Virus record (IMG/VR): IMGVR_UViG_3300017749_000005
Span: 1-64,000 of that record
DNA from: a virus
Reading direction: 5' to 3' (one strand)
Length of the DNA stretch: 64,000 nucleotides
Position 1 is the first letter of the stretch. Each line of letters begins with the position of its first letter. A program made the position numbers and the translations under genes. Positions 1-62,929 of this stretch are shown here, piece by piece. The notes beneath the pieces are model-generated. The model did not search any database. It saw only the letters and a program-made list of their open reading frames with translations, and was not told the DNA's origin.

Positions 1-1
1 T

Positions 2-406
2 ATTTGGGAGCGTATGGCAGATGATAAGGGTAAAGTCAGATCCAACTATGGTTGGCAATGGCAACGCAATAATCAAATAGATAAGGTAGTTAAGTTGTTG
101 AAAGAAAAGCCTGATACTAGAAAAGCATCTATAAGTATATATGATGCTAAAGAGTTTGATACTTACACTAACGATACTCCTTGTACTTATGCTGTCAACT
201 TTACGATAATGCATAACAGATTAAATATGTCTGTTGTAATGCGATCTAACGATCTGTGGTTTGGTTTCTGTAACGATCAATATTGTTTTTCAATGTTACA
301 TAAAATGATTGCAGACGCGTTGTCTATGGATCAAGGAACGTATTACCATTTTGCTCAGAATTTTCATATATATAAAAAACAATTAAAAGATCATGCTGGA
401 TACTAA
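2..406 (+). CDS. dNMP (dCMP-type) hydroxymethylase of the thymidylate-synthase superfamily, T4 gp42-like; C-terminal part only, the 5' end lies outside the window
   Basis: The frame is open from the window edge (IWERMADDKGKVRSNYGWQW...). Motifs SNYGW, PDTRK, TPCTY (catalytic Cys), MRSNDLWFGFCND and NFHIY match my recollection of T4 gp42 (SNYGW / MRSNDVVFGFRND / LHVY) better than canonical ThyA (RSxDxxLGxPFN). An Asp, not Asn, sits at the base-discriminating position. Confidence 0.75.
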   Translation: MWERMADDKGKVRSNYGWQWQRNNQIDKVVKLLKEKPDTRKASISIYDAKEFDTYTNDTPCTYAVNFTIMHNRLNMSVVMRSNDLWFGFCNDQYCFSMLHKMIADALSMDQGTYYHFAQNFHIYKKQLKDHAGY

Positions 407-1211
407 TAAAAGATATCATTTATATCATATACCGGGTAAAAAGATAGGTGTTACCTGTAATCTTAATAACCGGGTTACTAAACAACAAGGATATAAAAAT
501 CATGAATATGAGGTGTTAGAATCATCTAATGATATAAATTATGTATCTTTGAGAGAACATGAGTTACAAGAGGAGTATGGTTACATAAAAGACATGAGAC
601 CTTATTCAGAAGTAGTTAAATCTAGAATTAAAATTAAATCAAATAAAATGAGTAACAAAAAAATAGTAACTTCAAGTAGTGCAACAACTACTTTTCACTG
701 CCCAATAGTAGATCTTAGATCACATCTACTAACTAATCGAGAACATAAGTGGGAAATAGAAGAAGGTAACACTGTTTCATTAAATCAATCAAATATTGAT
801 TGGATATTAAAAAATGCTAACAGGTCTCAATTTGGAGATGATAAATGCTACATATATAACAAAGCATTTATAGATCAAATGGATGAAATGGTTGAGGTTG
901 ATCCAATAATGCAAGATAGGTTTTATCTAATACGTTCTTGGGCAGTTGAAAAAGGTATATACAAAAGTGGCGATTCAAAAACGCAATATGTTAAATTAAT
1001 GGAAGAAGCAGGTGAGTTAGCTAAAGCTCTACTCAACAGAGATGAACCTGAAATTATCGATGCTATCGGTGATATGGTTGTAGTGCTAACAAATCTAGCT
1101 AAGCTAGAAGGCTTTGATATTGAAGACTGTATTGACTCTGCATATAATGTTATTAAAAGCAGACAAGGTAAAATGGTTAATGGAACATTTGTAAAAAGAG
1201 AGTCGTTATGA
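393..1211 (+). CDS. Fusion protein: N-terminal degenerate GIY-YIG-like module plus C-terminal MazG-type NTP pyrophosphohydrolase
   Basis: The 272-aa ORF overlaps the upstream stop. The N-terminus (YHLYHIPGKKIGVTCNLNNRV...E..YGY) resembles GIY-YIG. The C-terminus (EEAGELAKALL...IIDAIGDMVVVLTNLA) carries the MazG EExGE / D motif pair. Confidence 0.6.
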   Translation: MLDTNKRYHLYHIPGKKIGVTCNLNNRVTKQQGYKNHEYEVLESSNDINYVSLREHELQEEYGYIKDMRPYSEVVKSRIKIKSNKMSNKKIVTSSSATTTFHCPIVDLRSHLLTNREHKWEIEEGNTVSLNQSNIDWILKNANRSQFGDDKCYIYNKAFIDQMDEMVEVDPIMQDRFYLIRSWAVEKGIYKSGDSKTQYVKLMEEAGELAKALLNRDEPEIIDAIGDMVVVLTNLAKLEGFDIEDCIDSAYNVIKSRQGKMVNGTFVKRESL

Positions 1212-1504
1212 GTAAATCAGAATTTTCAAAGATAGAGTTTAGAGATCCAGTCGTAAGACGAGTGGTAGAGAAATTTGTAGACAGATCAAATGTAGGGTTT
1301 GCTAAGTATGGTAGATCATTAGATGGTGAAAGAAGAGGTGGTCATAAAGACTTAGTTGGTTATCTAAATGATATACAAGAAGAGTTAATGGATGCAGTGC
1401 TATACATACAGGCTGCACGTGAGGAACTATCTGATCTTCGTGAAGATGAACTTGTTCGTAAGCTAAAAGAAAATTATGGCGAAGAAGCGATATTCGAAGA
1501 TTAG
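1208..1504 (+). CDS. Small all-alpha (MazG-like) nucleotide pyrophosphohydrolase-like protein
   Basis: 98 aa with an ATGA start/stop overlap to the upstream gene. The pattern FAKYG...LNDIQEELMDAVLYI resembles short phage MazG-like proteins. The functional call is weak. Confidence 0.4.
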   Translation: MSKSEFSKIEFRDPVVRRVVEKFVDRSNVGFAKYGRSLDGERRGGHKDLVGYLNDIQEELMDAVLYIQAAREELSDLREDELVRKLKENYGEEAIFED

Positions 1505-1955
1505 AAGAAAGAAAGGTCCAGTAACAGCTAGGAAGGTAATACACGATGGTGTTACCTTCGCTTCTGGCCTTGAGAAATATATGTACATCGCATTAAAAAA
1601 AGCAAAACTTAAATTTAAATATGAAGGAGAAAATTTTACACTGGTTGAATCGTTTAACTTTAACCGTGCAGCTCATGAGCGCCAGAATAATGGAAAAGGT
1701 GAGTATATTGATAGAGGCAATAAAAAAGTTCTAGGTATAAAATATACACCTGATTTTGTAGGTGAAAACTTTATAATAGAAACAAAAGGTAGAGCTAATG
1801 ACTCTTTTCCTATGAGATGGAAATTATTTAAAAGACATCTTATAGAGACAGGTGACAATAGGCTACTATATAAACCACAGACCAACAAGGAGTGTGACAG
1901 AACTGTAGAATTAATATTGAAAAAGCAAACATGGGATTATTTGAACAAAGAATAG
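1476..1955 (+). CDS. PD-(D/E)xK family nuclease (DUF1064-like / resolvase-like)
   Basis: 159 aa. YTPDF...IIETKG gives a D...ExK catalytic arrangement. The basic N-terminus and overall layout resemble DUF1064 phage nucleases. Confidence 0.45.
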   Translation: MAKKRYSKIRRKKGPVTARKVIHDGVTFASGLEKYMYIALKKAKLKFKYEGENFTLVESFNFNRAAHERQNNGKGEYIDRGNKKVLGIKYTPDFVGENFIIETKGRANDSFPMRWKLFKRHLIETGDNRLLYKPQTNKECDRTVELILKKQTWDYLNKE

Positions 1956-2890
1956 CATACAAGCCTTTTGAGTACCCTGAGTATTATACTGAGGGTTGGC
2001 TGAAACAAGCTCAAGCATTTTGGTTACACACAGAAATACCAATGTCAGGAGATGTTAAAGATTGGAATGAAAGATTAACACCTGAAGAGAAAAACCTAGT
2101 AGGTAATATACTATTAGGTTTTGCACAGACAGAGTGCGCAGTATCGGATTACTGGACACAAAATGTAGTATCATGGTTTCCAAAACATGAGATACAGCAG
2201 ATGGCTATGATGTTTGGTTCGCAAGAAACAATACATGCAGTAGCATATAGTTATTTAAATGAAACATTAGGACTTGATAATTTTGAAGCATTTTTACACG
2301 AGCCTGCAACGGCTCAGAGATTTGATAATCTCGTTGGATACGAAGGAACCGAAAAACTTGGGATTGCACGATCGCTTGCAATCTTTTCCGCTTTCGCAGA
2401 GGGTGTTAGCCTTTACAGTGCTTTTGCTGTTTTATATTCTTTCCAAATGCGTAACCTACTTAAAGGGATAGGTCAGCAGATGAAATGGAGTGTGAGAGAT
2501 GAAAGTCTTCACAGCAAAATGGGTTGTAGGTTATTTAACCATATGTGTGAGGAAGATTCTGGATTAAGAAGTGATACTGAAGGAGCAATTAAACTTGCTG
2601 CACAAGCTATGGTTGAGTTAGAAGAGAACTATATAGACAAGATGTTTGAGATGGGTGACATCGAAGGTATTAAGTCATATGATTTAAAACAATTCATAAG
2701 AAAAAGATGTAACGAAAAGCTAAGAGAGTTAGGTTATACTGATATGTTTACTTTTGATGAAAAGGCAGCAGCAGAACTTGATTGGTTTTATCATCTTACT
2801 GGTGGTCATACACATACAGACTTTTTTGCAATGAGACCAACTGATTATAGCAAAGCTAATGAAGGTGAAGATTTTGAAGATATTTGGTAA
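1931..2890 (+). CDS. nrdB: Ribonucleotide reductase class I beta subunit
   Basis: 319 aa with di-iron/tyrosyl radical motifs QETIHAVAYS, FAEGVSLYSAF and RDESLHS, and the acidic C-terminal tail EDFEDIW. Confidence 0.92.
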   Translation: MGLFEQRIAYKPFEYPEYYTEGWLKQAQAFWLHTEIPMSGDVKDWNERLTPEEKNLVGNILLGFAQTECAVSDYWTQNVVSWFPKHEIQQMAMMFGSQETIHAVAYSYLNETLGLDNFEAFLHEPATAQRFDNLVGYEGTEKLGIARSLAIFSAFAEGVSLYSAFAVLYSFQMRNLLKGIGQQMKWSVRDESLHSKMGCRLFNHMCEEDSGLRSDTEGAIKLAAQAMVELEENYIDKMFEMGDIEGIKSYDLKQFIRKRCNEKLRELGYTDMFTFDEKAAAELDWFYHLTGGHTHTDFFAMRPTDYSKANEGEDFEDIW

Positions 2891-2902
2891 ACAAACATAT
2901 AT

Positions 2903-4603
2903 ATGACTAGTAGTAATAGATGGATTAAAGGAGAAGATTACCCTGCGTGGGCAGATGGTGATGTTTATAAGAAAACAATTCAAGGAGGTTATTTACTCCC
3001 TGATGAGACACCACGTGATGCATACAAACGTGTTGCAACAGCCGTCTCGAGACGTTTAGACAAGCCAGAGATGGCAGATAAATTTTTTGAATATATATGG
3101 AACGGTTGGTTGTGTTTGGCATCCCCTGTGTTGTCTAATACAGGCACAGACAGAGGCTTACCAATTAGTTGTTTCGGTATAGACGTAGCAGATTCAATAT
3201 ATGATATTGGTACTAAAAACCTAGAGATGATGTTATTAGCTAAACACGGTGGAGGTGTTGGTATTGGTATTAACCAAATCAGACCTGCAGGTGCAAGCAT
3301 TACAGGTAATGGAACGTCTGACGGAGTAGTACCATTTTGTAAGATATATGATTCAACTATATTAGCTACAAACCAAGGATCAGTGAGACGAGGTGCTGCA
3401 AGTGTTAACTTGAATATTGAGCATGCTGATTTTGAGGAGTGGTTAGAGATTAGAGAACCAAAGGGTGATGTAAACAGACAATCACTTAATATGCATCAAT
3501 GTGCTGTGATTGGTGATAAGTTCATGCGTAAGCTTAGTTCAGGTGATAAAGTTGCTAGAAGAAAGTGGAGTTCGTTGTTACAGAAACGTAAAGCAACGGG
3601 TGAGCCATATGTAATGTTTAAAGGTAATATAAACAAAGTAAATCCTCCAGCATATAAAGATAATGCTTTGAAGGTATTTATGACAAACATATGCTCTGAG
3701 ATAGCATTGCATACAGATGAGAACCATAGCTTTGTATGTTGTTTATCTAGTTTAAACCTAGCTAAGTATGATGAGTGGAAAGATACAAATCTAATATATG
3801 ATAGTACTTTCTTCTTGGATGGTGTAATGGAAGAGTTTATACAAAGAGCTAAGGGTTTAAAAGGCTTTGAAAACGCTGTTAGATCTGCCGTAAAAGGTAG
3901 AGCTGTAGGTCTAGGTGTTTTAGGTTGGCATACATATCTACAAGAAAAACATCTACCATTTGAAGGATTATTAGCACAACATGAAACACGAAGAATATTT
4001 AGCCAAATTAAAATCGAAAGTGAACGAGCTAGTATGGCTCTCGCTAATCAGTACGGGGAACCGCTCTGGTGTGTTGGTACGGGATTTAGGAATACTCATC
4101 TTCGAGCTATCGCTCCTACTGTTAGCAATAGTAAGCTTAGTGGCAATATTAGTCCCGGCATTGAGCCTTGGGCTGCTAATGTATTTACTGAACAGAGTGC
4201 AAAAGGGACTTTTATACGTAAAAACCCTACTCTGGAAAAGTTCTTAGATAAGTTAGGTAAGAATACTAGTGAAGTTTGGGAGAAGATATTAGCTGACGGT
4301 GGATCCGTTCAGGATGTCAAAGAACTTGACGATGATGCTAAAGAGGTATTTAAAACTTTTAAAGAGCTTAACCAACTAGAGATAGTTAATCAAGCGGGTA
4401 TAAGGCAACAATATATAGATCAAAGCGTTAGCTTGAATCTAGCTTTCCCATCTCAAGCAGATCCTAAGTTTATAAACAAAGTACATCTTGAGGCTTGGAA
4501 AAAAGGTATTAAAACCTTATATTATATGAGAACTGAGTCAGTTCTGCGTGGAGACATAGCTGAAAAAGCTATGGATGAAGAGTGTTTGAGTTGTGATGGC
4601 TAA
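2903..4603 (+). CDS. nrdA: Ribonucleotide reductase class I alpha subunit, short form without ATP-cone
   Basis: 566 aa with the active-site NICSEIAL (Cys-Glu) motif, LSSLNL, SLNLAFP, and the C-terminal redox shuttle CLSCDG. It lies immediately downstream of nrdB. Confidence 0.9.
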   Translation: MTSSNRWIKGEDYPAWADGDVYKKTIQGGYLLPDETPRDAYKRVATAVSRRLDKPEMADKFFEYIWNGWLCLASPVLSNTGTDRGLPISCFGIDVADSIYDIGTKNLEMMLLAKHGGGVGIGINQIRPAGASITGNGTSDGVVPFCKIYDSTILATNQGSVRRGAASVNLNIEHADFEEWLEIREPKGDVNRQSLNMHQCAVIGDKFMRKLSSGDKVARRKWSSLLQKRKATGEPYVMFKGNINKVNPPAYKDNALKVFMTNICSEIALHTDENHSFVCCLSSLNLAKYDEWKDTNLIYDSTFFLDGVMEEFIQRAKGLKGFENAVRSAVKGRAVGLGVLGWHTYLQEKHLPFEGLLAQHETRRIFSQIKIESERASMALANQYGEPLWCVGTGFRNTHLRAIAPTVSNSKLSGNISPGIEPWAANVFTEQSAKGTFIRKNPTLEKFLDKLGKNTSEVWEKILADGGSVQDVKELDDDAKEVFKTFKELNQLEIVNQAGIRQQYIDQSVSLNLAFPSQADPKFINKVHLEAWKKGIKTLYYMRTESVLRGDIAEKAMDEECLSCDG

Positions 4604-4640
4604 AGGCTAAAAGTTATAACTATATGCTATACATAATACT

Positions 4641-4668
4641 AAGCCGGTCATAACGATCGGCTTTTTTT
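4641..4668. terminator. Intrinsic terminator between convergent modules
   Basis: AAGCCGGTC-ATAAC-GATCGGCTT is a 9-bp stem with one mismatch, followed by T7 on the + strand. It lies between the nrdA stop and the last leftward ORF. The + direction is canonical; the - direction has only a weak U tract. Confidence 0.8.
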
Positions 4669-4801
4669 ATTGCTTCTTCATTGATTTAATCTTACCTTTT
4701 TTATTAGGTACACAGTTAGGCACATTACGACCACCTTTTTTCTTCATACCGACCATTTGGTAACCTTTCCAACAAGGTCCTTTTTTTCCTTTCTTTTTCA
4801 T
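4667..4801 (-). CDS. 44-aa basic Cys-motif mini-protein (MKKKGKKGPCWKGYQMVGMKKKGGRNVPNCVPNKKGKIKSMKKQ)
   Basis: Below the ORF-track cutoff. The ATG at 4801 overlaps the stop of the upstream gene (4798), and the ORF ends at the terminator. The PCWKGY...VPNCVP pattern recalls small proteins I have seen in marine viral genomes; this is from memory only. Confidence 0.5.
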   Translation of the reverse strand: MKKKGKKGPCWKGYQMVGMKKKGGRNVPNCVPNKKGKIKSMKKQ

Positions 4802-4959
4802 TTTTTTTGTTTGTATGGGAATAAATTATTTAATATATTTTTTCTATGGTCACAACCGCATGGAATGTTTAATCCTTCAGAAACTTTATCAACCATACTC
4901 TTTATTCCGGTTTTTTGAGTAAACTTACCTATAGTGTCTCCTAATCCTTTTGATCTCAT
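4798..4959 (-). CDS. 53-aa protein with GLGDTI...CGC motif
   Basis: The track ORF 4798..5028 is trimmed to the internal ATG at 4959 (MRSKGLGDTIGKF...). That ATG lies 5 nt after the stop of 4964..5212. The longer form would overlap the neighbour by 65 nt. Confidence 0.55.
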   Translation of the reverse strand: MRSKGLGDTIGKFTQKTGIKSMVDKVSEGLNIPCGCDHRKNILNNLFPYKQKK

Positions 4960-4963
4960 AGTA

Positions 4964-5212
4964 TTAACATTTCCATCTTCTACGTGCTGCTCTACCTCTT
5001 TCACTAGTCCAACTCTTTGATCTAGCACAAAAAGCTTTTCTTCTTTTAGCAGCTTTACTACCTTTTTTAACTTTTCCAGTAACAGCTGTTTTTAATTTGC
5101 TACCAGGGTTTTTCTTTCTATATGCAGCAACACCTTTAGCTGTCATACCCGCACCTTCTTTAGTACTCCTAAAGTTTCTACCCTTACCTTTAGTTGTTTT
5201 TCTAATAGCCAT
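4964..5212 (-). CDS. Highly basic 82-aa protein (K/R-rich)
   Basis: The start abuts the stop of the upstream gene. About a third of residues are K/R by eye (KGKGRNFRSTK..KKGSKAAKRRK..RRRWKC). Function unknown; possibly nucleic-acid binding. Confidence 0.6.
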   Translation of the reverse strand: MAIRKTTKGKGRNFRSTKEGAGMTAKGVAAYRKKNPGSKLKTAVTGKVKKGSKAAKRRKAFCARSKSWTSERGRAARRRWKC

Positions 5213-5679
5213 TATTTACAAGTACAATTACATTCAGTACAACAATCAGTCACACTAATACTGACAAAGTCAGCATCACTCATTTTTTCGTATAACCTCT
5301 TAAATGCTGGTCCTGAGCTAGTTAAGTTATTATCTTCATTAAATCTATTTGATTTAACTGAATCACCTACCAAAAGGCATCCATCAGTATGATCATCATC
5401 GTTTCCTATATGAATATATACATATTGAAAACCTAGTACATCTTGAAGCATAAAGTGAAAATCAAACCAAGGATATTTTTTACGGTATTTTTCAGTTAAT
5501 CCACTAATCACCTCACGCTTTTCAACTTTATAAGTTCCAGCAGGTATCCTAGTTTCACCTTTTACCTTCTCAGCACGATACTCATCCTCTAATGTAAAGC
5601 ATTCAAACTCTCCATCAACAAACATTAATCCTAATGTAGTATCACTTTGACCACTAAATCGTTTTAGTTCTAATTTCAT
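5212..5679 (-). CDS. DUF5675-like protein, putative cell-wall-acting enzyme (L,D-transpeptidase-like H...GC motif) with Cys-rich tail
   Basis: 155 aa. The N-terminus TLGLMFVDGEFECFTLED, then IPAGTYKV and YIHIGNDDDHTDGCLLVG, match my memory of the DUF5675 family. The tail DCCTECNCTCK is unusual. The gene sits next to a TM protein at the end of the late module. Confidence 0.45.
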   Translation of the reverse strand: MKLELKRFSGQSDTTLGLMFVDGEFECFTLEDEYRAEKVKGETRIPAGTYKVEKREVISGLTEKYRKKYPWFDFHFMLQDVLGFQYVYIHIGNDDDHTDGCLLVGDSVKSNRFNEDNNLTSSGPAFKRLYEKMSDADFVSISVTDCCTECNCTCK

Positions 5680-5996
5680 TATCTATCTTTTTTACTGTAA
5701 AGGTCTTTTTGTAAATCTTCTACATGATTCCTAAGATCCTTAACATCTTGTTCTAAGTCCTTAACATGATCTAACATCCAAGCATGATTTAAATCATACT
5801 CTGTTCTATCTATGGCTGCGGGTGGCATTGATTTAGCATCTTCAATATCCATCTGTAACTTTACATACATGCTACCCAATGTAAATACTGCAGCTATGAT
5901 TAAACCTATTGATTTCAGTGTTAAGTGAAAATCAGGCTTACCATCTCCATCTACATCAACTCCCATATTTGTACTCCCTCCTAATTCTTTTGCCAT
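5679..5996 (-). CDS. Single-pass membrane protein with C-terminal coiled coil (holin/spanin-like candidate)
   Basis: 105 aa with one hydrophobic helix (IGLIIAAVFTLGSMYV) followed by a charged helical tail. It is start/stop coupled to the DUF5675-like gene. Confidence 0.4.
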   Translation of the reverse strand: MAKELGGSTNMGVDVDGDGKPDFHLTLKSIGLIIAAVFTLGSMYVKLQMDIEDAKSMPPAAIDRTEYDLNHAWMLDHVKDLEQDVKDLRNHVEDLQKDLYSKKDR

Positions 5997-6024
5997 ATTT
6001 TTAATTTTTTGTATATTGTTATTA

Positions 6025-9000
6025 TTACTTGTTTTTCTTGTTATTTATATATTCCTCAATTTCTTTGTCACTTAAATTGAAATCTCTTTTTAATCTTATT
6101 CTTAATCCTTTTTGTTTTTTAGTTAATGGCTTGAACTTATTACCTTTTCTTTCTTCCTCAGTAGCATTTAGCTCCCACTCAGACCATCCCATCATTAAAA
6201 ATGGTCTTTTCCAGTTTTTAGTGTCTGTGTCAAAAGCTTTTTCAATATTATTGTATTTTCTAAAAACTCTATCTAATGGTATGTTAAAAGCACCTGCCAT
6301 AACTTGACCTCCAGCTAAATAAGCTGGATTTTTTAAACTAAAACCTCTTTCTTTTATTTCAGCCATATTATAATCAAATGTTAATCCTGCTGATCTGAGT
6401 TTTGCTATTTTAGAATCTACTGGTGGAGACATATCTAGAAGTCTCAATCCAACATCAGCAAACTCTGTTTTTTTCTTATTATTTTGTTTGTGTATTTCTA
6501 ACATTATGTTTTTTAAAGTAGAAGCACCAGCACCAGCTATACCCATTCCTTTTAATAAACCATCAGCCATTGCATTAGCAAGTCCTAAGTGTTTTTTCTT
6601 AGAAGTAATATCATCTGTTTCTTCAAACAAACCAACAAATAAAGCATTTTGTGCAGCACTAAACATAATATTTTGAATAGCACTATAGTATATTATTTTA
6701 GAAACGTGTTCTTTCCAATCACCTCTACCATTTCTTAAGTCTGATAATGATTTATCCATTATTCTAACATACTGTGCAGGTGTATTTCCAAATGCCAAAA
6801 CTAAACGACCAAGAGTACTAGCCTGCTGTTGAGATATTAAATCAGGTCTACTAGACTGTTGAGATTGTTCCGTAACCTCTCTAAAATCCTCAAAAGCTCT
6901 ATCCTTAGCAGACCTTTCATTTAAACCTTGTTTTAAATATCTATTAAGTCTGTTTCTATAAAAAGTTGCTCCACCTGTAGCAATCGCAAAACTATCAGCA
7001 TACTTTGTAGGTGCAAATCCTTTTTGTAATATATACTTTAACGCACCTTTTATTTTATTTTTAGAAGTAGCAGCGGCATCAGCTATTTCTGATTCACTAA
7101 CATTTATCTTTAAACCACCTCTTCTTTCTACTAAAAAATCAGAATTAAATATGGTAGTAAAATCTTTCCAATATTGCTTTTGATTAGCTATAGCTTTTCC
7201 AGCAGCTAAAACATTATTGTCACTCCAGTTTATATAATTTATACTTGATAAAGTTTGTAATGCTGCCGATCTTGAATTAAGAAACATAATAGCACCAACA
7301 GAATTATTTAACCAATCTATAGCTAGGTTTTCTAACCTTGCACCTTTACCGCTAAACATGTTAATTTTGTTCCTACCAGTTTTCATTCTTTCCAAAGAAT
7401 TTTCTAAAGCCTCTCTGTGATTAGAACCTAATATAGCTTGTATTTTATTTAAATTATCTTCACTAAAAATTATATCAACATTAGCTTGCCATTCTTCTAA
7501 ATGCTTGGCTCTTCCATTTTCGTTTAAGCCTTTTAGTAAATCAGTTGTTATAGTACCAGTTTCCCAATTTTCACCTGGTTCAACATAACCTTCTCCCTTG
7601 CCCATTTCAATAAGCTTATCAGCAAAATATTGAAGCTGTGGATTAGAAGAAACATACTCACTTAACCTTCTTACTTGACCCTCGTTTAAGCCAGTTGTTG
7701 TATTACCCTGCTTGTTCCATATATAAACTCTAACAGCATCTTGATTTGAAAATATATTTTTACTTAAACCCTCTATCTTAGCCTTGCTAGTTAAATCTGG
7801 TATTAAACCTTTTAACTCCTTTTTTAAAGCAGCAAAATCATTAGTCATTGCAACTCTATCTGCATCAATATTTCTATTTGCTATTGCAAAAGGTCTTACT
7901 AAATTTTTTTGTATCCAATTTTCAGCTGCATCACCAACTATACCCTTACCTTTTAATGGTTGTAATAAACCTCTAAAGTCCTGAGCAGACCAAGCCATTA
8001 ACTTTAGCTTATTAGCATCAGCACCCAACTTGCTAGCCTCTATTTTAGAAAAAACTTTTTCTTTTGGTACACCAAATTTGTTTTCTATAGCTGTATTTAA
8101 TTCTTTACTTAAATTTTCAGATGCTAATGTAACTTTTTCAACCCTTCTTTGTCTGTCTATTTTTTCTGCTTCTCTCAATAAAAGTATTTGATTTGTTTTA
8201 CCATTAACAATAGGAACATTTAAATTTTTTGATACTCTTGTAACTTCTTTAGCTCTTTTAGCAAGTTTATCTTGTATCAAACCTAATTCTTTAAGTGACT
8301 CAAATATACCTATTTTTTCTTTTAGTATAATATCATAAGTTTTGCCAGTTTTAAGATCTAAAGTTGTCTCAGCATATGCTTGAGTAATCATTACATTTTC
8401 AGCACTCATTTGAGCTGTATTTTTAAGAGCAGTGCCTAAATTACCACCAAATTCTGGACTATCTATTATTTTCTGTAAAGCAGATCTTATTATACTTATC
8501 TTATAAGAATCTGCTAATTTATTAAAATCATCAGAACGAAGTTCTTTTTCACCTAAACTTTTTAACATTATATCAAAGAAATTAGCATTAAAATTAAGTG
8601 TTTGAAGTTCATGCTCTGTATAAACTCTAGACTTTAAAAAAGCTCTTTGCTTAGCAGTTGGTAAGTCTACAAATTTTTTTCCTTTTAATGAATCTGGATT
8701 CTTAGCTGTTTCAATTTGTTTATTCAACCATTGATTATATTCAACACCCAAAGATTTTATATCAAAAGATTCTATAGAAACACTTGTCATTTCTCCTAAA
8801 GCTCTAATAACACCTGTTTGTATACTAGAGTTTCTTTTAAAAAATTGAGCAATAAACGTTAAAGATTTAACTTTACCTTCTATAGTTTCTTTACTATTTA
8901 CATGCTTAAATAAAGCATTATATATTAATTTTAAAGCTTTTTTATTTGATTCAATTGTTTTTTCAAAATTAGCGTTATTGGCTCTACCACTTATACTTTC

Positions 9001-12000
9001 TCTTATAGCGGCTGCTATTTTAGGATATGCAGATGGTTTTATATTACCGTTTGAATCTAAATTATTATAATCTTTTAATTGAGTTATTAATCTTTCCTTT
9101 ACATTTCTAAAGTCAACTATTTTTAAATTTTCTAAACCTTTAGTAGATTCTTTAATATTTATTTTTTTAATAAAATTATCTGATTCTTTAGCACTTAATA
9201 CTCCTTTCAAAAAAGCATTTCTTAAACCAACTATAACCTTACCATTTTTAAATAATAGTTCTTTAGGTAGCATTAGAATAACTTCATTTACGTTATCTAA
9301 ATATGCCTTTTTTTGTTCAGGTTTACTCAAATCAAGCTCTGATGATACATTTTCTAATAATTCTTTTTTACCTGGATTACGTAATATTGCCTCTTGAATT
9401 ACTACATCATAACCAGATTTTCCTTCTTCAATTTTAGTTATATATTCGTAAGGTTGTTGGTCTATATCACTTAATGCTTTTTTAGCTAACTTTTGTGCTG
9501 CTATAAAAGCTTCCTTTACATTAAAGTTTTTTGAGTCAACAACATTATTTAAGATATCTATTATTTTATCTTTAGATTTATCTGTTGATATTAGATCTTT
9601 TATTTTACCATAAGCTTCTACAATAGCATCTTGCTTACTTTTTAAATAATTTTCATTATCTGGTTTAATTCTAATATTAATATCATTAACTTTACTACTT
9701 AATTCCTCAAAAGCCTCTGTTACTAATTTTTGACTTGCTAAGCTCTCAGGTAAACTACCCTTAAAACCCTCAAGTATATTTTCTAATTTTAAGTTTTCTA
9801 ATTTAGATCTATTAGTGCTATACAGAAACTCTTGATAAGTACTATTGCTTAATACTTCTCTGAACTTTTGATTAGAATATGTTCCACCTATCATTTCACC
9901 CAAAGATATTATTCTTTTAGCGGATTGCTGATTAGTATCTCCTTCTTTAAATATTGCATCTACTAAAATTTTACCAGTAGAATCTAATACCTTTTCTCTA
10001 ATTTTAACACCAGCACCTTTTTGGCTTTTAGTCATACTAGAAGGAGCTGTACTAAACTTTGCTCTACCAACCTCTGCAAACAAGCTTGGAAACGATTTAG
10101 CTGCATTTGTTACTGCTAAGTTCTCTGGGTTAAGACTTTTAGGCACTAACTCATAAATCTTTGATGCATTTTTTTCTATTATCTCTTTTTGTCTCTTTAA
10201 TTCTTTAGCACCTGACTTACCAGTTAAATCTAACGCTTCAAAAATAGCTTTTTTGCCTATATCAGCTGTAGCTTTTTGTATTTCTTTGTGACCAAGAGTC
10301 TCAATAGGTGTTGACTCTATTACTTCCTTTATCCTACTAACCATTTCAACATTAGATTTAGAACTAATTTCAAGTTCTTGTTCTACTGTTTTACCTTTTG
10401 TTGTTTTACCTTCTACGTTAGCGTATGTATCTACTTCTTTAAATTCGTAAGTATCTAAATCTATTTTAGACTCAGTAATTCTAGCTGATATATCTTCACC
10501 TGTTACTTTAGTAAGCTCTAACGCTTTATTGAAGTATTCAGGTGCTCTAATTTCTAATGTTTTTAAAACTGTTTTAGTAAGAGGCTGTTTAGTTGGATCA
10601 TAGTTTTTAACTATAGAACTAATACCTCTTGCTCCATACATCATCTCTATAGCCACTGAATAAGCTTTGCTATTAGGATCTGATATACTACCAAAATTAC
10701 CCATACCATTACGGTTAGCATAAGATGTAATTAAGCTTTGAGTTATTGCAGCAAAATCTCCAAAATCACTTTTTTCATTTGGTTGTTGAAACTCTTTAGT
10801 TATTTCTTCTTTTGATTTACCTTCTGCAACTAGTTTTTCGTATTTATTTTGTATTTCTTTAGAAGCCTCAATATTTTCAGGTGTTGATTGTTCTTTATCT
10901 AATTTTTCAGATTGTAATCTTTGTTGCTTAGGTCCAAACTCAACAGCTTCAACATGCTCAGCAAAACTTGATTTTATATTCAATAAAGGATTATATCCTT
11001 TTAAAGTGTTATTTGTAAAATTATATAAAAAATCAATTACATCTTTCTGCCTACTTAATTCAGGAACAAACTCTTTACCAATAGATTGTTCCATATTCTT
11101 TTGTATGACTTTTTTAACATTAGTATATCCCTCACTGTTAACAATGAAGTCTCGCATACCTGGCTCTGCTAAAAACTCTCCAGCATAAGCCATCATTTCT
11201 TCTAGCTTTACTTCTTTTTTAATGGATTTTCTATCTTTTATTTCTTGTAATACAGTTTTACCACTAGGTAGTTTTATTTGACTTAAAGCACCTTCTAGTT
11301 GAGATTGAAATTGTTTCTTGGCTTTTATATTTTTACCAAAAACCATGTCAGCTGCTGCATGTATTACTTCGTGAGGTACAACACCTGCTCTTTCCGCATA
11401 TACCGTATTTATAGTTATAGTCCCTCCTTTACCCGTACCATCAGACTTAAACTCAGCTTGGTTTTTACTTTCTGTTTTTTTATTTATAACTTCAACATTC
11501 AAGTTATAACCTTGCATTTTAAAAAAATTTGCTTGAGGCTTTAATAATTCTTCATATGCTCTCTTAGAAGTTAATGGATTAGAAAATCTTTCAGCCTTAG
11601 CTATTATATCAATTCTAGATTGTGCTTGTGTATATATATCAGCGTATCTCTTTTCAGCTTTTACATTTCCATTTTTTTGAGCTTTAGCCATTAAAATTAT
11701 AGAAGAATTTCTAATTTCAACAAGTCCCTCATTAGTTTTAAAGTCTAAAGATTTAGCATCTTTAAATGGTAACATAGCACCAAATGTCATACTAATAAAA
11801 CCTCTTTGTAAGAGATCTCTCATATCTTTTTTTCCTTCAAAATAATCGTTGAACTGTTCATCCATGAAATCAGTAAATGATTCATCATAAAGAAGTTCAT
11901 CCACAGCTGCTCTACCTATTTTAGAGGCTTCAGATGCAGTTACAAATCCAATAGAACCGCTAGATATTTTTGTAAAAAAATTAACTATATTGCTAGCTGT

Positions 12001-13758
12001 TTTAGGTGTAAGCTTACCTAAGATTTGTTGGGTTGCACCAAATGTAGATCCTTCAGAAGCCAAACCACCTATAAGCTGAAATTCAACATCTGTTATAGCT
12101 AGATTCAATAACGTATTGCCAAATGCCGCTATAGGATTAGCTCTTACTGCCGTATAACCAGCTGCTGCGGCAAATTCTTTTATAGCTTCCTTTGTTGGTC
12201 TTACTCCTTTTTTTAATTTAGAAGCAACATTAACTATTTTACCAGCCTTGTTAGTATACCTAATAGCAGAAGCAGCTTTATTTAATCTTACTAAAGCTGG
12301 AATTAATGTCATGCCTAAATTTTTGCCCGAACCTAAAAATGCTAACTCTCCTATTGCCATTACCATACCAGGTGTCTCAGTTGCTAATTGTTCTGAAAAA
12401 TCAACTCTAGAATATTCTTTATCCTCTGGAGATAATTCTTTACCAGCTGAAAGTAATAAATTTTCAACAGCATTTATTTCTTTTCTAGGTGTGCTTTCTA
12501 AGCCTCCATAAGGTATTAAATCTATACCAAAGAAAGATAATTTACTAGCACTATCAACCATCTCAGTTAAATCTGACTTTTCAATGTTTCTAAGCGATTT
12601 ATTCTCTATGAATGCATGATTCAAAGCTTTTCTTTCTATTTCTATTTGTTTATTTATATCTTTAAATTTAACTAAAGCTTTCTCAAAATCTTCTGCTGAA
12701 CCATCAAACGTAACAGGTTTTAGTGAATCATCTGATTCATTTAAATATGTACTGTATTTTAATACATCTTTATATTTAACATCTTTATATATGAAATTAC
12801 CATCTTCTTGTTTAGTTCCAGTATAACCCATACCCTGCATAAACATATTTAACTGAGTTCCACCTTCAGATATATAATCACTAGTTTGACGACCCTTTAA
12901 TTTAAAAGCTACTCTATCTTCGACGTTGCTATTATAAAGACTTTCTAAGGTTGACTCATCTTGTTTTACTCTAAGTTCAATAAGTTTTTCAACCTCACTT
13001 GTAACTTTTTGTTCTTCTCCAAAATTACTTATTATTACTTCTTTAAAGTCATCTAAAACTATAATCTCTTGTTCTAGATCGGGTAAACCAACAGCCCCAA
13101 CGCCACCGGATGCCATTGATGTTACTTTATTTAAATCTTTCTTAATTTTATTTTCTTCTGATTTTTTTTTATTTAAAGTGTTAATACTTTGTTCATACTC
13201 TTTTCTATCAGCTTCGGTTTTTGGGCTATTTCTATATTTCGATGCTAAAATGGCTTCAGGACTAGCAGTTTCATCATCTTCAATAGTTTGATCTACTACA
13301 TCATAGTATGATTCGTTATCTTTTATAGCCTCAAAAAGGTTTTCGTCTCTTATTAATTTATACTCATCCTCACTTTTCTTAGCTATCCTACTAGATATCA
13401 TTTCAGTTACATCAGATTTTTTGAGAGATTTAAAATCATTCTCTACATCTCTCATATACCAAGGATTGATACCTATGGATCTTCTGATTTTATCTGAAAC
13501 TTCTTCTAGTTTATCTTCATCTTTAAATATATCAGCAAAACTATCCGTATCAGCATAAGACCTCATTAAATTTTCATCACTAAAAACTTCATCATCTAAA
13601 AAACTGTTGAACTTAACAATATCCTGCTTATATTCAGTTGAAGATTTTCTAATATCTTCATCAGACATAGCAGGTTTGTTGCTAGATTTATCCTCATCAA
13701 AAGAAGTACCAATTATATTATCTATAATACCTAAGGGATTAAACTTACTTTCTGGCAT
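6025..13758 (-). CDS. Giant 2577-aa virion-associated protein with zincin HExxH motif (candidate ejected / polyvalent internal protein)
   Basis: One uninterrupted 7.7-kb ORF. HEVIH lies at aa 796-800 (nt 11359-11373). The protein is K/E-rich and helical, with no fibre-like repeats. It is the last and largest of three consecutive internal-protein-like genes, a T7 gp14/15/16-like position. Confidence 0.6.
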   Translation of the reverse strand: MPESKFNPLGIIDNIIGTSFDEDKSSNKPAMSDEDIRKSSTEYKQDIVKFNSFLDDEVFSDENLMRSYADTDSFADIFKDEDKLEEVSDKIRRSIGINPWYMRDVENDFKSLKKSDVTEMISSRIAKKSEDEYKLIRDENLFEAIKDNESYYDVVDQTIEDDETASPEAILASKYRNSPKTEADRKEYEQSINTLNKKKSEENKIKKDLNKVTSMASGGVGAVGLPDLEQEIIVLDDFKEVIISNFGEEQKVTSEVEKLIELRVKQDESTLESLYNSNVEDRVAFKLKGRQTSDYISEGGTQLNMFMQGMGYTGTKQEDGNFIYKDVKYKDVLKYSTYLNESDDSLKPVTFDGSAEDFEKALVKFKDINKQIEIERKALNHAFIENKSLRNIEKSDLTEMVDSASKLSFFGIDLIPYGGLESTPRKEINAVENLLLSAGKELSPEDKEYSRVDFSEQLATETPGMVMAIGELAFLGSGKNLGMTLIPALVRLNKAASAIRYTNKAGKIVNVASKLKKGVRPTKEAIKEFAAAAGYTAVRANPIAAFGNTLLNLAITDVEFQLIGGLASEGSTFGATQQILGKLTPKTASNIVNFFTKISSGSIGFVTASEASKIGRAAVDELLYDESFTDFMDEQFNDYFEGKKDMRDLLQRGFISMTFGAMLPFKDAKSLDFKTNEGLVEIRNSSIILMAKAQKNGNVKAEKRYADIYTQAQSRIDIIAKAERFSNPLTSKRAYEELLKPQANFFKMQGYNLNVEVINKKTESKNQAEFKSDGTGKGGTITINTVYAERAGVVPHEVIHAAADMVFGKNIKAKKQFQSQLEGALSQIKLPSGKTVLQEIKDRKSIKKEVKLEEMMAYAGEFLAEPGMRDFIVNSEGYTNVKKVIQKNMEQSIGKEFVPELSRQKDVIDFLYNFTNNTLKGYNPLLNIKSSFAEHVEAVEFGPKQQRLQSEKLDKEQSTPENIEASKEIQNKYEKLVAEGKSKEEITKEFQQPNEKSDFGDFAAITQSLITSYANRNGMGNFGSISDPNSKAYSVAIEMMYGARGISSIVKNYDPTKQPLTKTVLKTLEIRAPEYFNKALELTKVTGEDISARITESKIDLDTYEFKEVDTYANVEGKTTKGKTVEQELEISSKSNVEMVSRIKEVIESTPIETLGHKEIQKATADIGKKAIFEALDLTGKSGAKELKRQKEIIEKNASKIYELVPKSLNPENLAVTNAAKSFPSLFAEVGRAKFSTAPSSMTKSQKGAGVKIREKVLDSTGKILVDAIFKEGDTNQQSAKRIISLGEMIGGTYSNQKFREVLSNSTYQEFLYSTNRSKLENLKLENILEGFKGSLPESLASQKLVTEAFEELSSKVNDINIRIKPDNENYLKSKQDAIVEAYGKIKDLISTDKSKDKIIDILNNVVDSKNFNVKEAFIAAQKLAKKALSDIDQQPYEYITKIEEGKSGYDVVIQEAILRNPGKKELLENVSSELDLSKPEQKKAYLDNVNEVILMLPKELLFKNGKVIVGLRNAFLKGVLSAKESDNFIKKINIKESTKGLENLKIVDFRNVKERLITQLKDYNNLDSNGNIKPSAYPKIAAAIRESISGRANNANFEKTIESNKKALKLIYNALFKHVNSKETIEGKVKSLTFIAQFFKRNSSIQTGVIRALGEMTSVSIESFDIKSLGVEYNQWLNKQIETAKNPDSLKGKKFVDLPTAKQRAFLKSRVYTEHELQTLNFNANFFDIMLKSLGEKELRSDDFNKLADSYKISIIRSALQKIIDSPEFGGNLGTALKNTAQMSAENVMITQAYAETTLDLKTGKTYDIILKEKIGIFESLKELGLIQDKLAKRAKEVTRVSKNLNVPIVNGKTNQILLLREAEKIDRQRRVEKVTLASENLSKELNTAIENKFGVPKEKVFSKIEASKLGADANKLKLMAWSAQDFRGLLQPLKGKGIVGDAAENWIQKNLVRPFAIANRNIDADRVAMTNDFAALKKELKGLIPDLTSKAKIEGLSKNIFSNQDAVRVYIWNKQGNTTTGLNEGQVRRLSEYVSSNPQLQYFADKLIEMGKGEGYVEPGENWETGTITTDLLKGLNENGRAKHLEEWQANVDIIFSEDNLNKIQAILGSNHREALENSLERMKTGRNKINMFSGKGARLENLAIDWLNNSVGAIMFLNSRSAALQTLSSINYINWSDNNVLAAGKAIANQKQYWKDFTTIFNSDFLVERRGGLKINVSESEIADAAATSKNKIKGALKYILQKGFAPTKYADSFAIATGGATFYRNRLNRYLKQGLNERSAKDRAFEDFREVTEQSQQSSRPDLISQQQASTLGRLVLAFGNTPAQYVRIMDKSLSDLRNGRGDWKEHVSKIIYYSAIQNIMFSAAQNALFVGLFEETDDITSKKKHLGLANAMADGLLKGMGIAGAGASTLKNIMLEIHKQNNKKKTEFADVGLRLLDMSPPVDSKIAKLRSAGLTFDYNMAEIKERGFSLKNPAYLAGGQVMAGAFNIPLDRVFRKYNNIEKAFDTDTKNWKRPFLMMGWSEWELNATEEERKGNKFKPLTKKQKGLRIRLKRDFNLSDKEIEEYINNKKNK

Positions 13759-17044: not shown

Positions 17045-20000
17045 TTAAGGTTCTACTTGTAGAGTTATTTGAGGATTTAATCTTAAAACAGTGGTTGATG
17101 ATACTGTTGAACTAAGATTGAATACAGCATTAAAAGTTAATGTTCTTGATTGGTTTCCAGCATTACCAGAAAATGATGATGTAAATATAAAGTTATTTAT
17201 AGTTGTAGTAAAACCCAATGTTGATGGTCCTAATGCTAATCCTATCATATTAATAGTATTACCATGAAAAGTACCAGTAACAGAACCACTACCTGAGATT
17301 TGACCTGATGAACCTACCGCAACTTTTTTAGGCGTAAAAGTAAAAAAATCAATATAAAAGCTAGATGAAAATGTTTTTTGTATAAATATATCTGTTACAG
17401 TAGCATTATTATTATTTTGAGTACTACCTATTGTTGCTGTTAATATACTATTTAAGTTAATTGGTATTTGTAAATCATTAATTCCATATTTAGATACAGA
17501 TATTCTACCTTGTAATATATATTTATTTCCAGCACTTGTAGATGAAAGAGATTCAGTTAAATCTTCAAAGTTAAAATCCCAAAATGGATCATTTGCTGAT
17601 AAACTAGCATTTATAATGATACTAGAACCTACTATACTGCTTTGAAAATCATTAGGATTTGAACCATTCAAACCAACTGCATTTACCACAAAAGAATTAC
17701 TACTTATAGAACTTATAACATAAGTATCATCAAAAGAGCTCGAAGAAACTAGCATACCTATTGCAACATTAGAATCTAAAGTAGCTGTTAAAGTAAATGT
17801 TCTTGAAGAAGTGTTATAAGAACTTACTGATGCTTCAAATTCTTCAGGCTTTAAATCACTATTTGTTATTGGCAATGCATTGGTAGTTTTTGCTAATAAA
17901 GCTGTTCCTTCAGCTTTTGCTATAACTCTGAAAAATACTTCAGAAGCAAATGAACCTGGTACTGGTTCTCCATATGCATGATATTGTCCATTGTCTCCAA
18001 AAGTCAGTTCAGCTGCATCAGCTATAGCTACATTTGCAAAACTAGAGTTTTTAGGAACTTTATCTATATTTATTGTTGTTTTAGATCCATCACTACTAGT
18101 AGATACTACTCTAGTATATGCTTGTATATTGTTACCAAAAACAAGCATACCTGGTTTTATCTCTGAGTTAACAGCACTAAGTACTATACTATCAAGTCCA
18201 GAAGCATGACCATTAGAGTCAACAACAGTTGCATCATTTAAGTTTCTAAGCTTAACATAGTTATTAGAATCTGTTCCAGTAGCTGTAGTAGAATTAGTGT
18301 TAGTAGCCACAATACTTATTGTAGGTAATTTGTATTGATGTACAAGAAAAGATGCATGTACAACATTATTATTACTATCTCTTGTGTTTATTGCGCTTCC
18401 AGAAAAATCACTACTAAGTAATCCACTTACAATATTATTGTTAATAACATTGATTGGTCTTATAAAATAATTAAAACTATTAGTTGTAGAACTTTGGTCA
18501 TATTTTATAGTTATAGGATATCTACCTGAATCAGGAAGAAGTAAAATTGTTTCTGCCGCTATTGATTTAGTAGAGACAAACTCTGTACCATTCCAGTATT
18601 GTTTAAGGTAAATGTTTTGACCTATGCTTGGACTAATATTTCCGCTTGAGCCTAGTATTATAAATGCTGTTATTATGCCTGTAATACTATTTACACTGGT
18701 ATAGTTAATATAACTTCCAGGTGGAAACATTGCACCAGTTATTTCCATTTTAGGTCTTGGTGTTGCTGTTAAATTACCAAAAGTAGCATGAACAATACTT
18801 GTAGTTGTTTGAGAAAACGTGGCTAATGTACAAGTTACTTCATTACTAAAAGTAAAATAAGGATTAACTTTAGAAACATAGCCAGTAGATCCACTAACAA
18901 TCATTGTTCTATCTTCTCCTTTATTTAATATTGTTTTATTTGTTCCATCGAAAGAAGTAAGTTCTGAAACACCAGGATCAAAAACCTCAGCAGCAGTAGC
19001 TGTTAGCGTTATAACATCTTGTGTTGGATTATTAGTTCCAAAAACATATTTTACCTGTACTGTAACTTTAGCAGAAGTAAAAGTTAAAGTTGTTCCAGCT
19101 TCTATTGATTTAGCGGCACTTAAGGTTAAGCTTGAGTTATTTATAGCAGCAACTCTAATATTTTTACCTAAATTAACACCTGTAACAGCCATACCTACTT
19201 CTATGAGGTTGTTTGTTCCACTCAAAGTTACATTTACACTGTTAGAAGAACCTAGAGCAGTATCTTGAGTTGTGGTTGCCCAATTGTTAGTTATAGTATA
19301 ACCACTTATGTCATTATCATCTTGTTGTTCTATAATACCGCTAATACTACTAGCTGATGGGAAAAAATAATTATCCGAAGCTATAAATATTTTTGCAAAA
19401 ACTAACATTGGAGCGGTATTGTATATACCGTGATTGTTTTGAAATCTTCCTAAATCCCTAGAATCTGTTGTAGTATTTGTTTCATGTGTGTTATAAAAAC
19501 CAGAAACAGAATAGTATATAGGCGTTGCAACTCCTGTTAAATCATTAACATATGATTGATCAGAGCTAGGGTGATTTATGGAAAAGCTAAAAGTTGCAAT
19601 AACATTTTTTCCATCTTGCAAAAAAGTAACAGCGTTAGATCCTCTTAACACACTAGCACCCATTTGATAAGCAAATATTTTGTAACCTAAAACAGGTTCA
19701 ATTGTTAATTGAACATTAGCAATAGCGCTACCAGGTTCTCCATATATTACTTTAGTATCACTAACAATTGTATTATGGTTAGAAGATGCATTAGTCATTG
19801 ATACTGTAATTTTCTTTTGAGTTATAACAGTATCACCAGTCATTAGAGTAAAAGTACCTAATCCTTGCACAGACAATTCCTTAGTATCTATATTTGAAGA
19901 TGAGGTAACATCTCCCGTAATAAAATTACTCCATAAACCTTCTTTTTCTTTAAATGATAAAACATTACCAGATTGTATATTTGTTTTAACAGAGGATCCA

Positions 20001-36859: not shown

Positions 36860-36869
36860 TGTTTTTTGT

Positions 36870-37214: not shown

Positions 37215-37215
37215 A

Positions 37216-58274: not shown

Positions 58275-58276
58275 CT

Positions 58277-61001: not shown

Positions 61002-61019
61002 CAATTTAAATTAAAAGTT

Positions 61020-62887: not shown

Positions 62888-62929
62888 CAATAGGGTATTA
62901 ATATAATAGGGTAAGGGGCTAATGTCACA
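62883..62929. promoter_or_regulatory. Palindromic element copy 3 (inverted relative to copies 1 and 2)
   Basis: TGTGACAATAGGGTATTAATATAATAGGGTAAGGGGCTAATGTCACA. Its reverse complement is about 80% identical to copy 1. It overlaps the upstream stop and the first candidate ATG of the HTH gene. Confidence 0.7.

Follow-up and report, generated by a model that had tools for sequence, protein, structure and literature searches.

Does the incomplete gene with which a viral DNA stretch begins supply thymidylate, or does it prepare a modified cytosine for the phage genome? The stretch in question comprises positions 1 to 64,000 of the IMG/VR record IMGVR_UViG_3300017749_000005 and is referred to here, at its full length of 64,000 nucleotides (nt), as the window. 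Source annotations label the protein family of this first gene 'thymidylate synthase'. A sequence-only reading of the window had instead placed the truncated open reading frame (ORF) closer to gp42, the deoxycytidine monophosphate (dCMP) hydroxymethylase of phage T4, than to thymidylate synthase (ThyA), and had suggested that the phage might carry hypermodified DNA. The computational analysis described here indicates, at the level of conserved residues, that the gene most probably encodes a T4-style dCMP hydroxymethylase of the gp42 type and not a thymidylate synthase. For the explanation as a whole, in which this enzyme (ORF1), compact at 219 amino acids (aa), would act as a folate-dependent dCMP 5-hydroxymethyltransferase and feed 5-hydroxymethylcytosine (5hmC) into phage DNA, a probability of about 60% is estimated.

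The truncated gene and its full-length counterpart

The gene is read in frame 2 and is cut off by the start of the window, with ~255 nt of its 5' part lying outside. The portion that is present and its key codons, numbered after ThyA where a residue number is given, are as follows.

2..406, + strand: dCMP hydroxymethylase-like gene (ThyA superfamily), C-terminal 134 codons and stop
Key codons: Ser, 41-43; Tyr, 47-49; Arg, 119-121; Asp three residues before the catalytic Cys (position Cys-3), 173-175; Cys, 182-184
Key codons, continued: Thr, 185-187; Arg-Ser, 242-247; Asp169, 251-253; Asp177, 275-277
Key codons, last: His, 365-367; Tyr, 371-373

The fragment matches the Pfam family PF00303 (Thymidylat_synt) with an E-value of 5.6e-24, and the PHROG families that it matches are named 'thymidylate synthase'. 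The three motifs quoted in the sequence-only reading are present in the product, as IWERMADDKGKVRSNYGW, MRSNDLWFGFCND and HIY. The metagenomic homologue P0001, full length at 219 aa, was used as a stand-in for the complete protein, because it is 96% identical to the fragment and is encoded on a contig (L001) whose DNA is 97.5% identical to that of the window. A megablast search of window positions 1-6000 against 50,697 phage records gave no match, and there is thus no close cultured relative among them.

Hydroxymethylase or thymidylate synthase

Among the sequences of the PDB, T4 dCMP hydroxymethylase (1B49, E 2.5e-14) and the CMP hydroxymethylase MilA come closest to the fragment, with all ThyA proteins ranking behind them. 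P0001 scores 78.8 bits with the T4 enzyme, 69.3 with MilA, 61.8 with the best ThyA and 50.5 with ThyA of E. coli. Since this margin of the T4 enzyme over ThyA is modest, residue-level tests were relied on, and E. coli ThyA, T4 gp42, RB69 gp48 and SPO1 gp29 (experimentally characterised proteins taken from annotated genomes) were aligned with the window family. SPO1 gp29 is a hydroxymethylase of deoxyuridine monophosphate (dUMP). RB69 gp48 is a flavin-dependent 5-hydroxy-dCMP synthase (PMC13326640).

At position 177, Asn goes with dUMP and Asp with dCMP, and N177D or D179N swaps change the substrate (PMC8670742, PMC13326640). The window protein has Asp at the ThyA-N177 position: HMMER aligns its FGFCND with FGFRND of T4, so that the window Asp (275-277) falls on T4 Asp179, as the sequence-only reading had proposed, and the deposited T4 D179N mutant (6l18) has Asn in this same column. 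In the full-length alignment with T4 gp42, SPO1 gp29 and ThyA, P0001 likewise carries Asp at the Asp/Asn discriminator. The catalytic Cys (182-184) aligns with T4 Cys148 and E. coli Cys146. Position Cys-3 is Leu in ThyA and Asp or Glu in hydroxymethylases (PMC6400193, PMC13326640), and the T4 mutant D145N is inactive (PMC6400193); here, the window has Asp (NDTPC), compared with SDFMC in T4 and ALAPC in E. coli. The Ser-x-Tyr element (T4 Ser94/Tyr96) that holds the catalytic water (PMC6400193) is part of the sequence SNYGW, which is the same in the window and in T4. Position 147, at which modified and unmodified contigs differ (PMC8670742), is Thr in both as well. The catalytic Glu60 of T4 (ThyA Glu58) corresponds to Glu62 of P0001 and lies beyond the window.

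Asn at position 169 is the mark of 5-hydroxy-dCMP synthases (PMC13326640). RB69 gp48 has this Asn (RSQN) whereas the window keeps Asp169 (RSND), and its enzyme is therefore not of the D169N type. Ser167 and Arg126 account for deoxyribose specificity and are replaced by Ala and Lys in MilA (PMC5175136); both are present in the window protein (RSND and DTRK) and invariant in family alignment A1, which indicates a deoxyribose substrate. Read at Cys-3, 146, 147, 169 and 177, the signatures compare as follows.

Window family: D-C-T-D-D
T4 gp42: D-C-T-D-D
E. coli ThyA: L-C-H-D-N
RB69 gp48: E-C-T-N-D
SPO1 gp29: D-C-N-D-N

Two assignments were rejected on these positions, namely a dUMP hydroxymethylase of the SPO1 gp29 type, which has Asn at position 177 where the window has Asp, and a canonical ThyA, whose Asn177, Leu143 and His147 are replaced by Asp, Asp and Thr.

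An exhaustive HMMER search of 1.84 billion cluster representatives retrieved 8,293 relatives at E <=0.001. The set compared in detail comprised 132 sequences (P0001 included), made up of six references and 126 representatives of 50%-identity clusters, which were taken from the best 150 and are at least 170 aa long. The signature D-C-T-D-D occurs in 119 of these 132 sequences, and Asp occupies position 177 in all representatives among the best 150 that align there, one being gapped. The ThyA equivalog models of NCBIfam have cut-offs of 108-427 bits, and P0001 scores no higher than 91 with any of them, while E. coli ThyA, as a control, passes its equivalog with 579 bits against a cut-off of 405; T4 gp42, RB69 gp48 and SPO1 gp29 fail these models likewise. 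With Asp177 and this failure, the protein does not fall among true thymidylate synthases with Asn at the discriminator, and the PDB ranking, the residue matches and the NCBIfam result together uphold the earlier placement of the gene nearer to T4 dCMP hydroxymethylase than to ThyA.

The window protein has the ThyA fold in common with T4 gp42 (1B5E, 6A9A), and its family shares with the latter Glu60, Ser94-x-Tyr96, Asp145, Cys148, Thr149, Arg168-Ser169, Asp171, Asp179, His216 and Tyr218, together with the motifs IW(x6)KG(x3)SNYGW and MRSND(x2)FGF(x)ND. The identity to gp42 is ~36%, Arg124 of T4 is Lys in the window family, and P0001, with 219 aa compared to 246, ends a few residues past HxY. 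With E. coli ThyA (2TSC), the fold, Cys146, Glu58, Tyr94, Arg126, Arg166, Ser167, Asp169, His207 and Tyr209 are held in common, but the window family has Asp177, Asp143 and Thr147 and is missing the C-terminal ~45 residues. In ThyA, this C-terminal part shuts over the folate so that hydride can be transferred.

The gene cassette and its conservation

The gene opens a chain of + strand genes with overlapping starts and stops, which continues as listed.

393..1211, + strand: three-domain MazG protein of 272 aa (Pfam PF03819 and PF01503; PHROG MazG-like families)
1208..1504, + strand: ORF3, all-helical protein of 98 aa (AF2: helices only)
1476..1955, + strand: DUF1064 protein of 159 aa, resolvase/endonuclease-like (PF06356, E 1.2e-7; PHROG 190 'Holliday junction resolvase')
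1931..2890, + strand: small subunit (NrdB-like) of class I ribonucleotide reductase (RNR) (PF00268, E 8.6e-60)
2903..4603, + strand: large subunit (NrdA) of class I RNR, 566 aa (PF02867, E 4.8e-92, and PF00317)

The order hydroxymethylase, MazG, ORF3, DUF1064 and RNR is repeated in ~80 marine viral contigs. A scan of IMG/VR yielded 80 loci with hydroxymethylase-like proteins of 56-85% identity, on contigs of ~4-72 kb, and 82 loci were counted when the window and L001 were added. The ThyA-like gene is present in 82 of these, MazG in 81, ORF3 in 66 and DUF1064 in 62, and contig ends may explain why ORF3 or DUF1064 is missing from some loci. A class I RNR comes after the cassette in 20 loci and a class II RNR in 38, and a primase-helicase precedes it in ~55. 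The cassette is thus a conserved functional unit and no chance adjacency. The sequence-only reading had let a class I RNR follow immediately after two MazG-type genes. Both RNR subunits are present, but they do not stand directly behind ORF3, because the DUF1064 gene (1476-1955) intervenes. No ATP-cone domain was detected in the short NrdA (2903-4603).

Of the two MazG-type genes, only the one at 393-1211 could be confirmed. Its start overlaps the end of the 2-406 ORF by 14 nt, and PF03819 is matched with 31.9 bits (cut-off 22) over residues ~200-258 of the product. A structural model generated by AF2 from database homologues, with a predicted local distance difference test (pLDDT) score of 73, divides the product into three domains.

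Domain 1, residues 8-61 (nt 414-575): beta-beta-alpha-beta-alpha with a GIY-YIG-like motif (AF2 model)
Domain 2, residues 92-163 (nt 666-881): alpha/beta, no family assigned (AF2 model)
Domain 3, residues 171-268 (nt 903-1196): helical, MazG-type nucleoside triphosphate (NTP) pyrophosphohydrolase (AF2 model, Foldseek)

The MazG domain contains the motifs EExGE and DAIGD, with LMEEAGEL and IDAIGD invariant in the family alignments, as expected of the metal-binding helices EExxE and (E/D)xxD of MazG proteins, and a Foldseek search of the PDB returns MazG structures at a probability of ~1.0. The matches include the entries 1vmg, 5ie9 (Bacillus MazG), 7mu5 (the human dCTP pyrophosphatase DCTPP1) and 7ody, and MazZ of cyanophage S-2L is among the structures matched; 7MU5 and 5IE9 are also structural neighbours of the RB69 gp56-type dCTPase (table in PMC13326640). 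As a guess, the MazG domain of 393-1211 may be named a candidate dCTPase. Domain 1 shows the invariant pattern YxxYHIPGKKIGVT...R...E and gave two weak matches to GIY-YIG proteins in BFVD (E ~0.02-0.04), and it is tentatively described as GIY-YIG-like. A profile search of PDB sequences with the N-terminal domain returned only a spurious match to glutamate dehydrogenase, and Foldseek comparison of the entire 393-1211 model with the PDB gave matches for the MazG part only. The N-terminal domains are not always present: 17 of the 82 loci encode MazG on its own, as a protein of ~100 aa.

The start of ORF3 overlaps the stop of 393-1211 within ATGA. As a second MazG protein, ORF3 was rejected: none of 22 members gave a Pfam match, no fold in the PDB matched, the hhalign comparison with the MazG domain gave a probability of 2%, and the resemblance is confined to the EELMDA motif, which recalls the second MazG helix. 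The protein has 38 invariant columns across 22 diverse members (alignment A2) and 6,518 metagenomic homologues, and no Pfam domain was found in the 120 best of the homologues listed. An ORF3-like stretch with 37% identity over 57 aa (E 6e-4) is present in the Flavobacterium phage elemoA (L089 6758-7213), within a 151-aa protein annotated as 'ABC-type histidine transport ATPase', and no annotated ThyA or MazG lies within the 14 kb around it. This is a hint that the role of ORF3 is perhaps not tied to the hydroxymethylase.

Some related loci carry additional genes upstream. In 13 loci, a gene for an enzyme dependent on pyridoxal phosphate (PLP; PF00291) ends 11 nt upstream of the hydroxymethylase-like gene (e.g. 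L059:3852-4742, L052:2910-3806 and L044:4467-5399), and two genes of ~300 aa with no assigned function occur up to ~2 kb upstream in 13 and 10 loci, which are overlapping sets. All three genes are absent from the window; in the related sublineage, 5hmC may be modified further, and these genes are the candidates for that. An ATP-dependent DNA ligase (PF01068 and PF14743) is encoded upstream of the cassette in 23 loci (e.g. L036:2836-3681) and is likewise not found in the window. Both ligase domains are enriched on cytosine-modified contigs (PMC8670742).

Comparison with known systems is possible at several points. ThyA homologues with Asp177 are the domain most strongly associated with phage contigs of experimentally demonstrated cytosine modification, obtained from sewage and coastal viromes by MetaGPA (PMC8670742), which tempers the novelty that the sequence-only reading had assumed for this kind of phage. 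As here, the ThyA homologues of these uncultured phages combine Asp177 with a residue other than His at position 147, and the ligase domains PF01068 and PF14743 recur in loci related to the window. The follow-up of that study concerned hypermodification by a carbamoyltransferase (PMC8670742), an enzyme that is absent here. The closest cultured homologue, at 46% identity, is the 'deoxycytidylate 5-hydroxymethyltransferase' of the Bacteroides phage BF486P2 group. This protein is similarly short (226 aa), has the signature D-C-T-D-D and belongs to a phage of a Bacteroidota host. It differs from the window in that two paralogues occur together with a dUTPase and that the annotated neighbourhood is without the MazG/ORF3/DUF1064 cassette, and its annotation is by similarity only. 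No paper on the DNA of BF486P2-group phages was found in the literature, and nothing specific was found on hydroxymethylcytosine in Flavobacterium, Cellulophaga or marine phages.

Genome context and probable host

The contigs L007 and L008 have ~80-90% DNA identity to the window over most aligned stretches, and each joins the 3' end of the window (62880-63998) to position 2 through ~4.1 kb (L007 6101-10255). Because its two ends are bridged in this way, the window represents ~94% of a circularly permuted genome of ~68 kb. The bridge encodes a sigma factor, an ERF recombinase, a PDDEXK exonuclease, an SSB-like protein, a primase-helicase and a protein of 82 aa. The genome is AT-rich, with ~32% G+C. 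The large terminase has 45% identity to that of Flavobacterium elemoviruses, also matches Cellulophaga phages and has 63% identity to the terminase encoded by an uncultured Caudoviricetes genome. These relatives point to marine Bacteroidota, a member of which is probably the host, and the phage itself is probably podovirus-like. The replication module of elemoviruses is without the hydroxymethylase cassette.

Pfam or PHROG scans covered the L007 bridge and every window ORF with a length of 90 aa or more. Outside the 2-406 gene, they revealed neither a canonical or second ThyA nor a ThyX, and this gene is therefore not a spare copy.

A proposed route to 5-hydroxymethylcytosine and its rivals

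On the route proposed for ORF1 as a dCMP hydroxymethylase, RNR would provide deoxycytidine diphosphate, and the MazG domain of 393-1211 would convert deoxycytidine triphosphate (dCTP) to dCMP and pyrophosphate, thereby lowering the competing canonical nucleotide. ORF1 would then form 5-hydroxymethyl-dCMP (hm-dCMP) from dCMP and methylene-tetrahydrofolate, host kinases or an unrecognised phage protein would raise hm-dCMP to the triphosphate (hm-dCTP), and the phage primase-helicase would load the host replicase, which would incorporate it. Phage DNA in which 5hmC replaces some or all of the C would finally escape restriction. The chances that virion DNA does contain 5hmC or a derivative of it are judged to be even.

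The pairing of a hydroxymethylase with an all-alpha NTP pyrophosphatase and RNR is common to T4 and the window. The T4-like logic suggested in the sequence-only reading is plausible in this respect, the hydroxymethylase and pyrophosphatase genes being paired in 81 of 82 loci. The window pyrophosphatase is a MazG domain that has no sequence similarity to the T4 dCTPase gp56 and is fused to two extra domains. The term 'hypermodified' proved to be an overstatement, because no tailoring enzyme is recognised across the near-complete ~68 kb genome and nothing in it supports further decoration of the base. Plain 5hmC is plausible. When T4 gp42 and a nucleotide kinase are expressed in E. coli, 5-hydroxymethyldeoxycytidine appears in plasmid DNA (PMC13326640), so that incorporation by a host replicase is feasible in principle.

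Several points weigh against this explanation. The identity to gp42 is 35-38% compared with 28-32% to ThyA, with E-values alike, and the argument draws on active-site residues, whose published rules are partly correlative. At the C-terminus, the family stops ~45 residues short of ThyA, and its proteins are also shorter than T4 dCMP hydroxymethylase. An hhalign comparison of the MazG domain with T4 gp56 shows no relationship, and as MazG domains of this ~100-aa type are common in Firmicutes siphophages too, the dCTPase role is suggested by gene position only. T4 requires gp1 for the phosphorylation of hm-dCMP. A deoxynucleoside monophosphate (dNMP) kinase was not matched in the scanned ORFs or the bridge, and a scan for Walker A motifs gave none in kinase-sized ORFs, its matches being the ERF-family recombinase, the primase-helicase, three giant structural ORFs and a 127-aa ORF. 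The scanned ORFs and the bridge likewise yielded no dCMP deaminase, DNA polymerase, glycosyltransferase or other tailoring enzyme. Accordingly, neither the dNMP kinase nor the glycosyltransferases considered in the sequence-only reading were found, and the genome differs from that of T4 in having no recognised counterpart of the gp1 kinase, the glucosyltransferases or the phage DNA polymerase. Searches by blastp with T4 gp1, RB69 thymidylate kinase, T4 beta-gt and gp56 retrieved nothing from the window or the 80 related loci. As ~thirty small early ORFs are unannotated, genes called absent are to be read as not recognised. The weak link of the pathway is the phosphorylation of hm-dCMP: with no gp1 recognisable, this step must fall to kinases of the host or to a phage protein that was not recognised.

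An unlikely but more far-reaching version holds that four small genes may suffice for 5hmC by way of host kinases and the host replicase, which would make them a minimal portable cytosine-replacement cassette. The four would be the compact dCMP hydroxymethylase, the GIY-YIG-like/MazG fusion, the helical ORF3 and the DUF1064 nuclease. It is similarly doubtful whether, in such a cassette, ORF3 or the N-terminal domains of the MazG fusion would supply the missing function. By analogy, and just as speculatively, this function might be that of an hm-dCMP kinase, an adaptor or a nuclease selective for DNA with unmodified C, similar to T4 endonuclease II. The latter is a GIY-YIG enzyme.

Other readings of the cassette have to be set against the 5hmC route. 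Asp177 fixes the cytosine substrate only, and the MazG/dCTPase logic would be unchanged if ORF1 were a dCMP methyltransferase of the kind found in Xanthomonas phage XP12, with 5-methyl-dCMP as its product and 5-methylcytosine in place of 5hmC in the DNA; indeed, ThyA N177D mutants yield 5-methyl-dCMP (PMC8670742). Such an enzyme is nevertheless highly improbable here, as the residue at Cys-3 is Asp and not a bulky hydrophobic one and Ser-x-Tyr is T4-like, both of which are tied to water attack and not to hydride transfer (PMC6400193, PMC13326640), and as the C-terminal segment of ThyA is missing in the family. Equally slim are the prospects of an ordinary nucleotide-supply module, in which a thymidylate synthase, RNR and a housekeeping MazG would boost deoxythymidine triphosphate for an AT-rich genome of canonical DNA. 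RNR, ThyA or ThyX and MazG are described as a common trio of marine phages, the family is annotated 'thymidylate synthase' at source, the genome has no other thymidylate synthase, and a kinase, a glycosyltransferase and an own polymerase were not found. Such a module is hard to reconcile with the replacement of the ThyA residues at 177, 143 and 147, with a P0001 score far below every curated ThyA equivalog when E. coli ThyA passes, and with Asp in each nearest representative that aligns at 177; moreover, swaps of the D179N type abolish or switch the activity of the T4 enzyme (PMC6400193).

The lack of a recognisable enzyme for the step from hm-dCMP to the diphosphate would suit a phage in which hm-dCMP, or another cytidine-nucleotide product, is made without bulk incorporation into DNA. 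It might then act as a pool drain that lowers host dCMP and dCTP, favouring the AT-rich genome or starving host replication, or enter a small-molecule pathway such as that of MilA, which shows that the fold can serve ends other than DNA (PMC5175136). In E. coli, a ThyA homologue without a cognate kinase led to trace incorporation only (PMC13326640). This reading is improbable, given that Ser167 and Arg126 indicate a deoxy substrate and not cytidine monophosphate (PMC5175136), that the genome has no downstream genes for small-molecule biosynthesis and that the pairing with RNR and replication genes fits the synthesis of DNA precursors, and given also that the PLP-dependent enzyme and the DNA ligase adjoining in related loci have domains linked to DNA modification (PMC8670742). 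A flavin-dependent 5-hydroxy-dCMP synthase like RB69 gp48, leading to 5-hydroxycytosine DNA, would agree with the window protein in its fold, in Asp177 and in the acidic nature of the Cys-3 residue. It can be regarded as extremely improbable, since the diagnostic D169N is absent (RSND compared with RSQN of RB69; PMC13326640) and genes for arabinosyl- or glycosyltransferases were not found.

Other features of the window

Outside the cassette, the structural module contains two giant ORFs without a Pfam match, at 6025-13758 (- strand, 2577 aa) and 17045-24961 (- strand, 2638 aa), the former with relatives in 36 related loci. A GroEL-like chaperonin is encoded at 47858-49420 (- strand; phrog_5725, E 1.5e-131) and a GroES-like co-chaperonin at 35412-36017 (- strand; phrog_13932). 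Three tandem paralogues at 36527-37578 (- strand) encode DUF7936 domain proteins of 114-120 aa. ARAGORN places a tRNA-Asp of 89 nt at 60914-61002 (+ strand); its anticodon, ATC, is unusual, and it may be either a false call or an atypical tRNA. Among the small early ORFs of the + strand, two paralogous pairs occur: 54565-54801 and 55817-56059 have ...KRF(V/I)I(R/S)K(T/S)LIGTNTIITF... in common, and 57463-57726 and 58277-58654 the motif ADNINDYEPD. A staphylococcal-nuclease-like gene (PF00565; L007:315-713) lies in an insertion of ~440 bp that the window does not have at ~58273-58297.

Significance for marine phages

The kind of system is already known, both from the T4 paradigm and from the Asp177 homologues, the leading marker of contigs with modified cytosine (PMC8670742). 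Novelty lies in three points: the hydroxymethylase-like proteins form a compact marine family, very abundant and so far uncharacterised; the phage has no recognised polymerase, kinase or transferases of its own; and a three-domain MazG fusion and the all-helical ORF3 belong to a fixed cassette. With the hydroxymethylase as query, 7,069 metagenomic proteins were retrieved, a count not limited to the window family; many of these and of the ORF3 matches come from Tara Oceans. Cytosine hydroxymethylation is a known anti-restriction trait of phage DNA.

If the proposed explanation is true, a large group of uncultured marine phages would carry 5hmC DNA, and this would affect their recovery by sequencing and enzymatic library methods, their evasion of restriction and CRISPR in marine Bacteroidota and their targeting by type IV, modification-dependent defences. 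If the minimal cassette were also real, 5hmC DNA would, in view of the thousands of metagenomic homologues, be common among marine phages without their own polymerase. Under the proposed explanation itself, replacement of cytosine would be possible without T4's complete set of kinase, polymerase and glycosyltransferases, and ORF3 and the N-terminal part of the MazG fusion, two abundant protein families that have no annotation, would gain a function.

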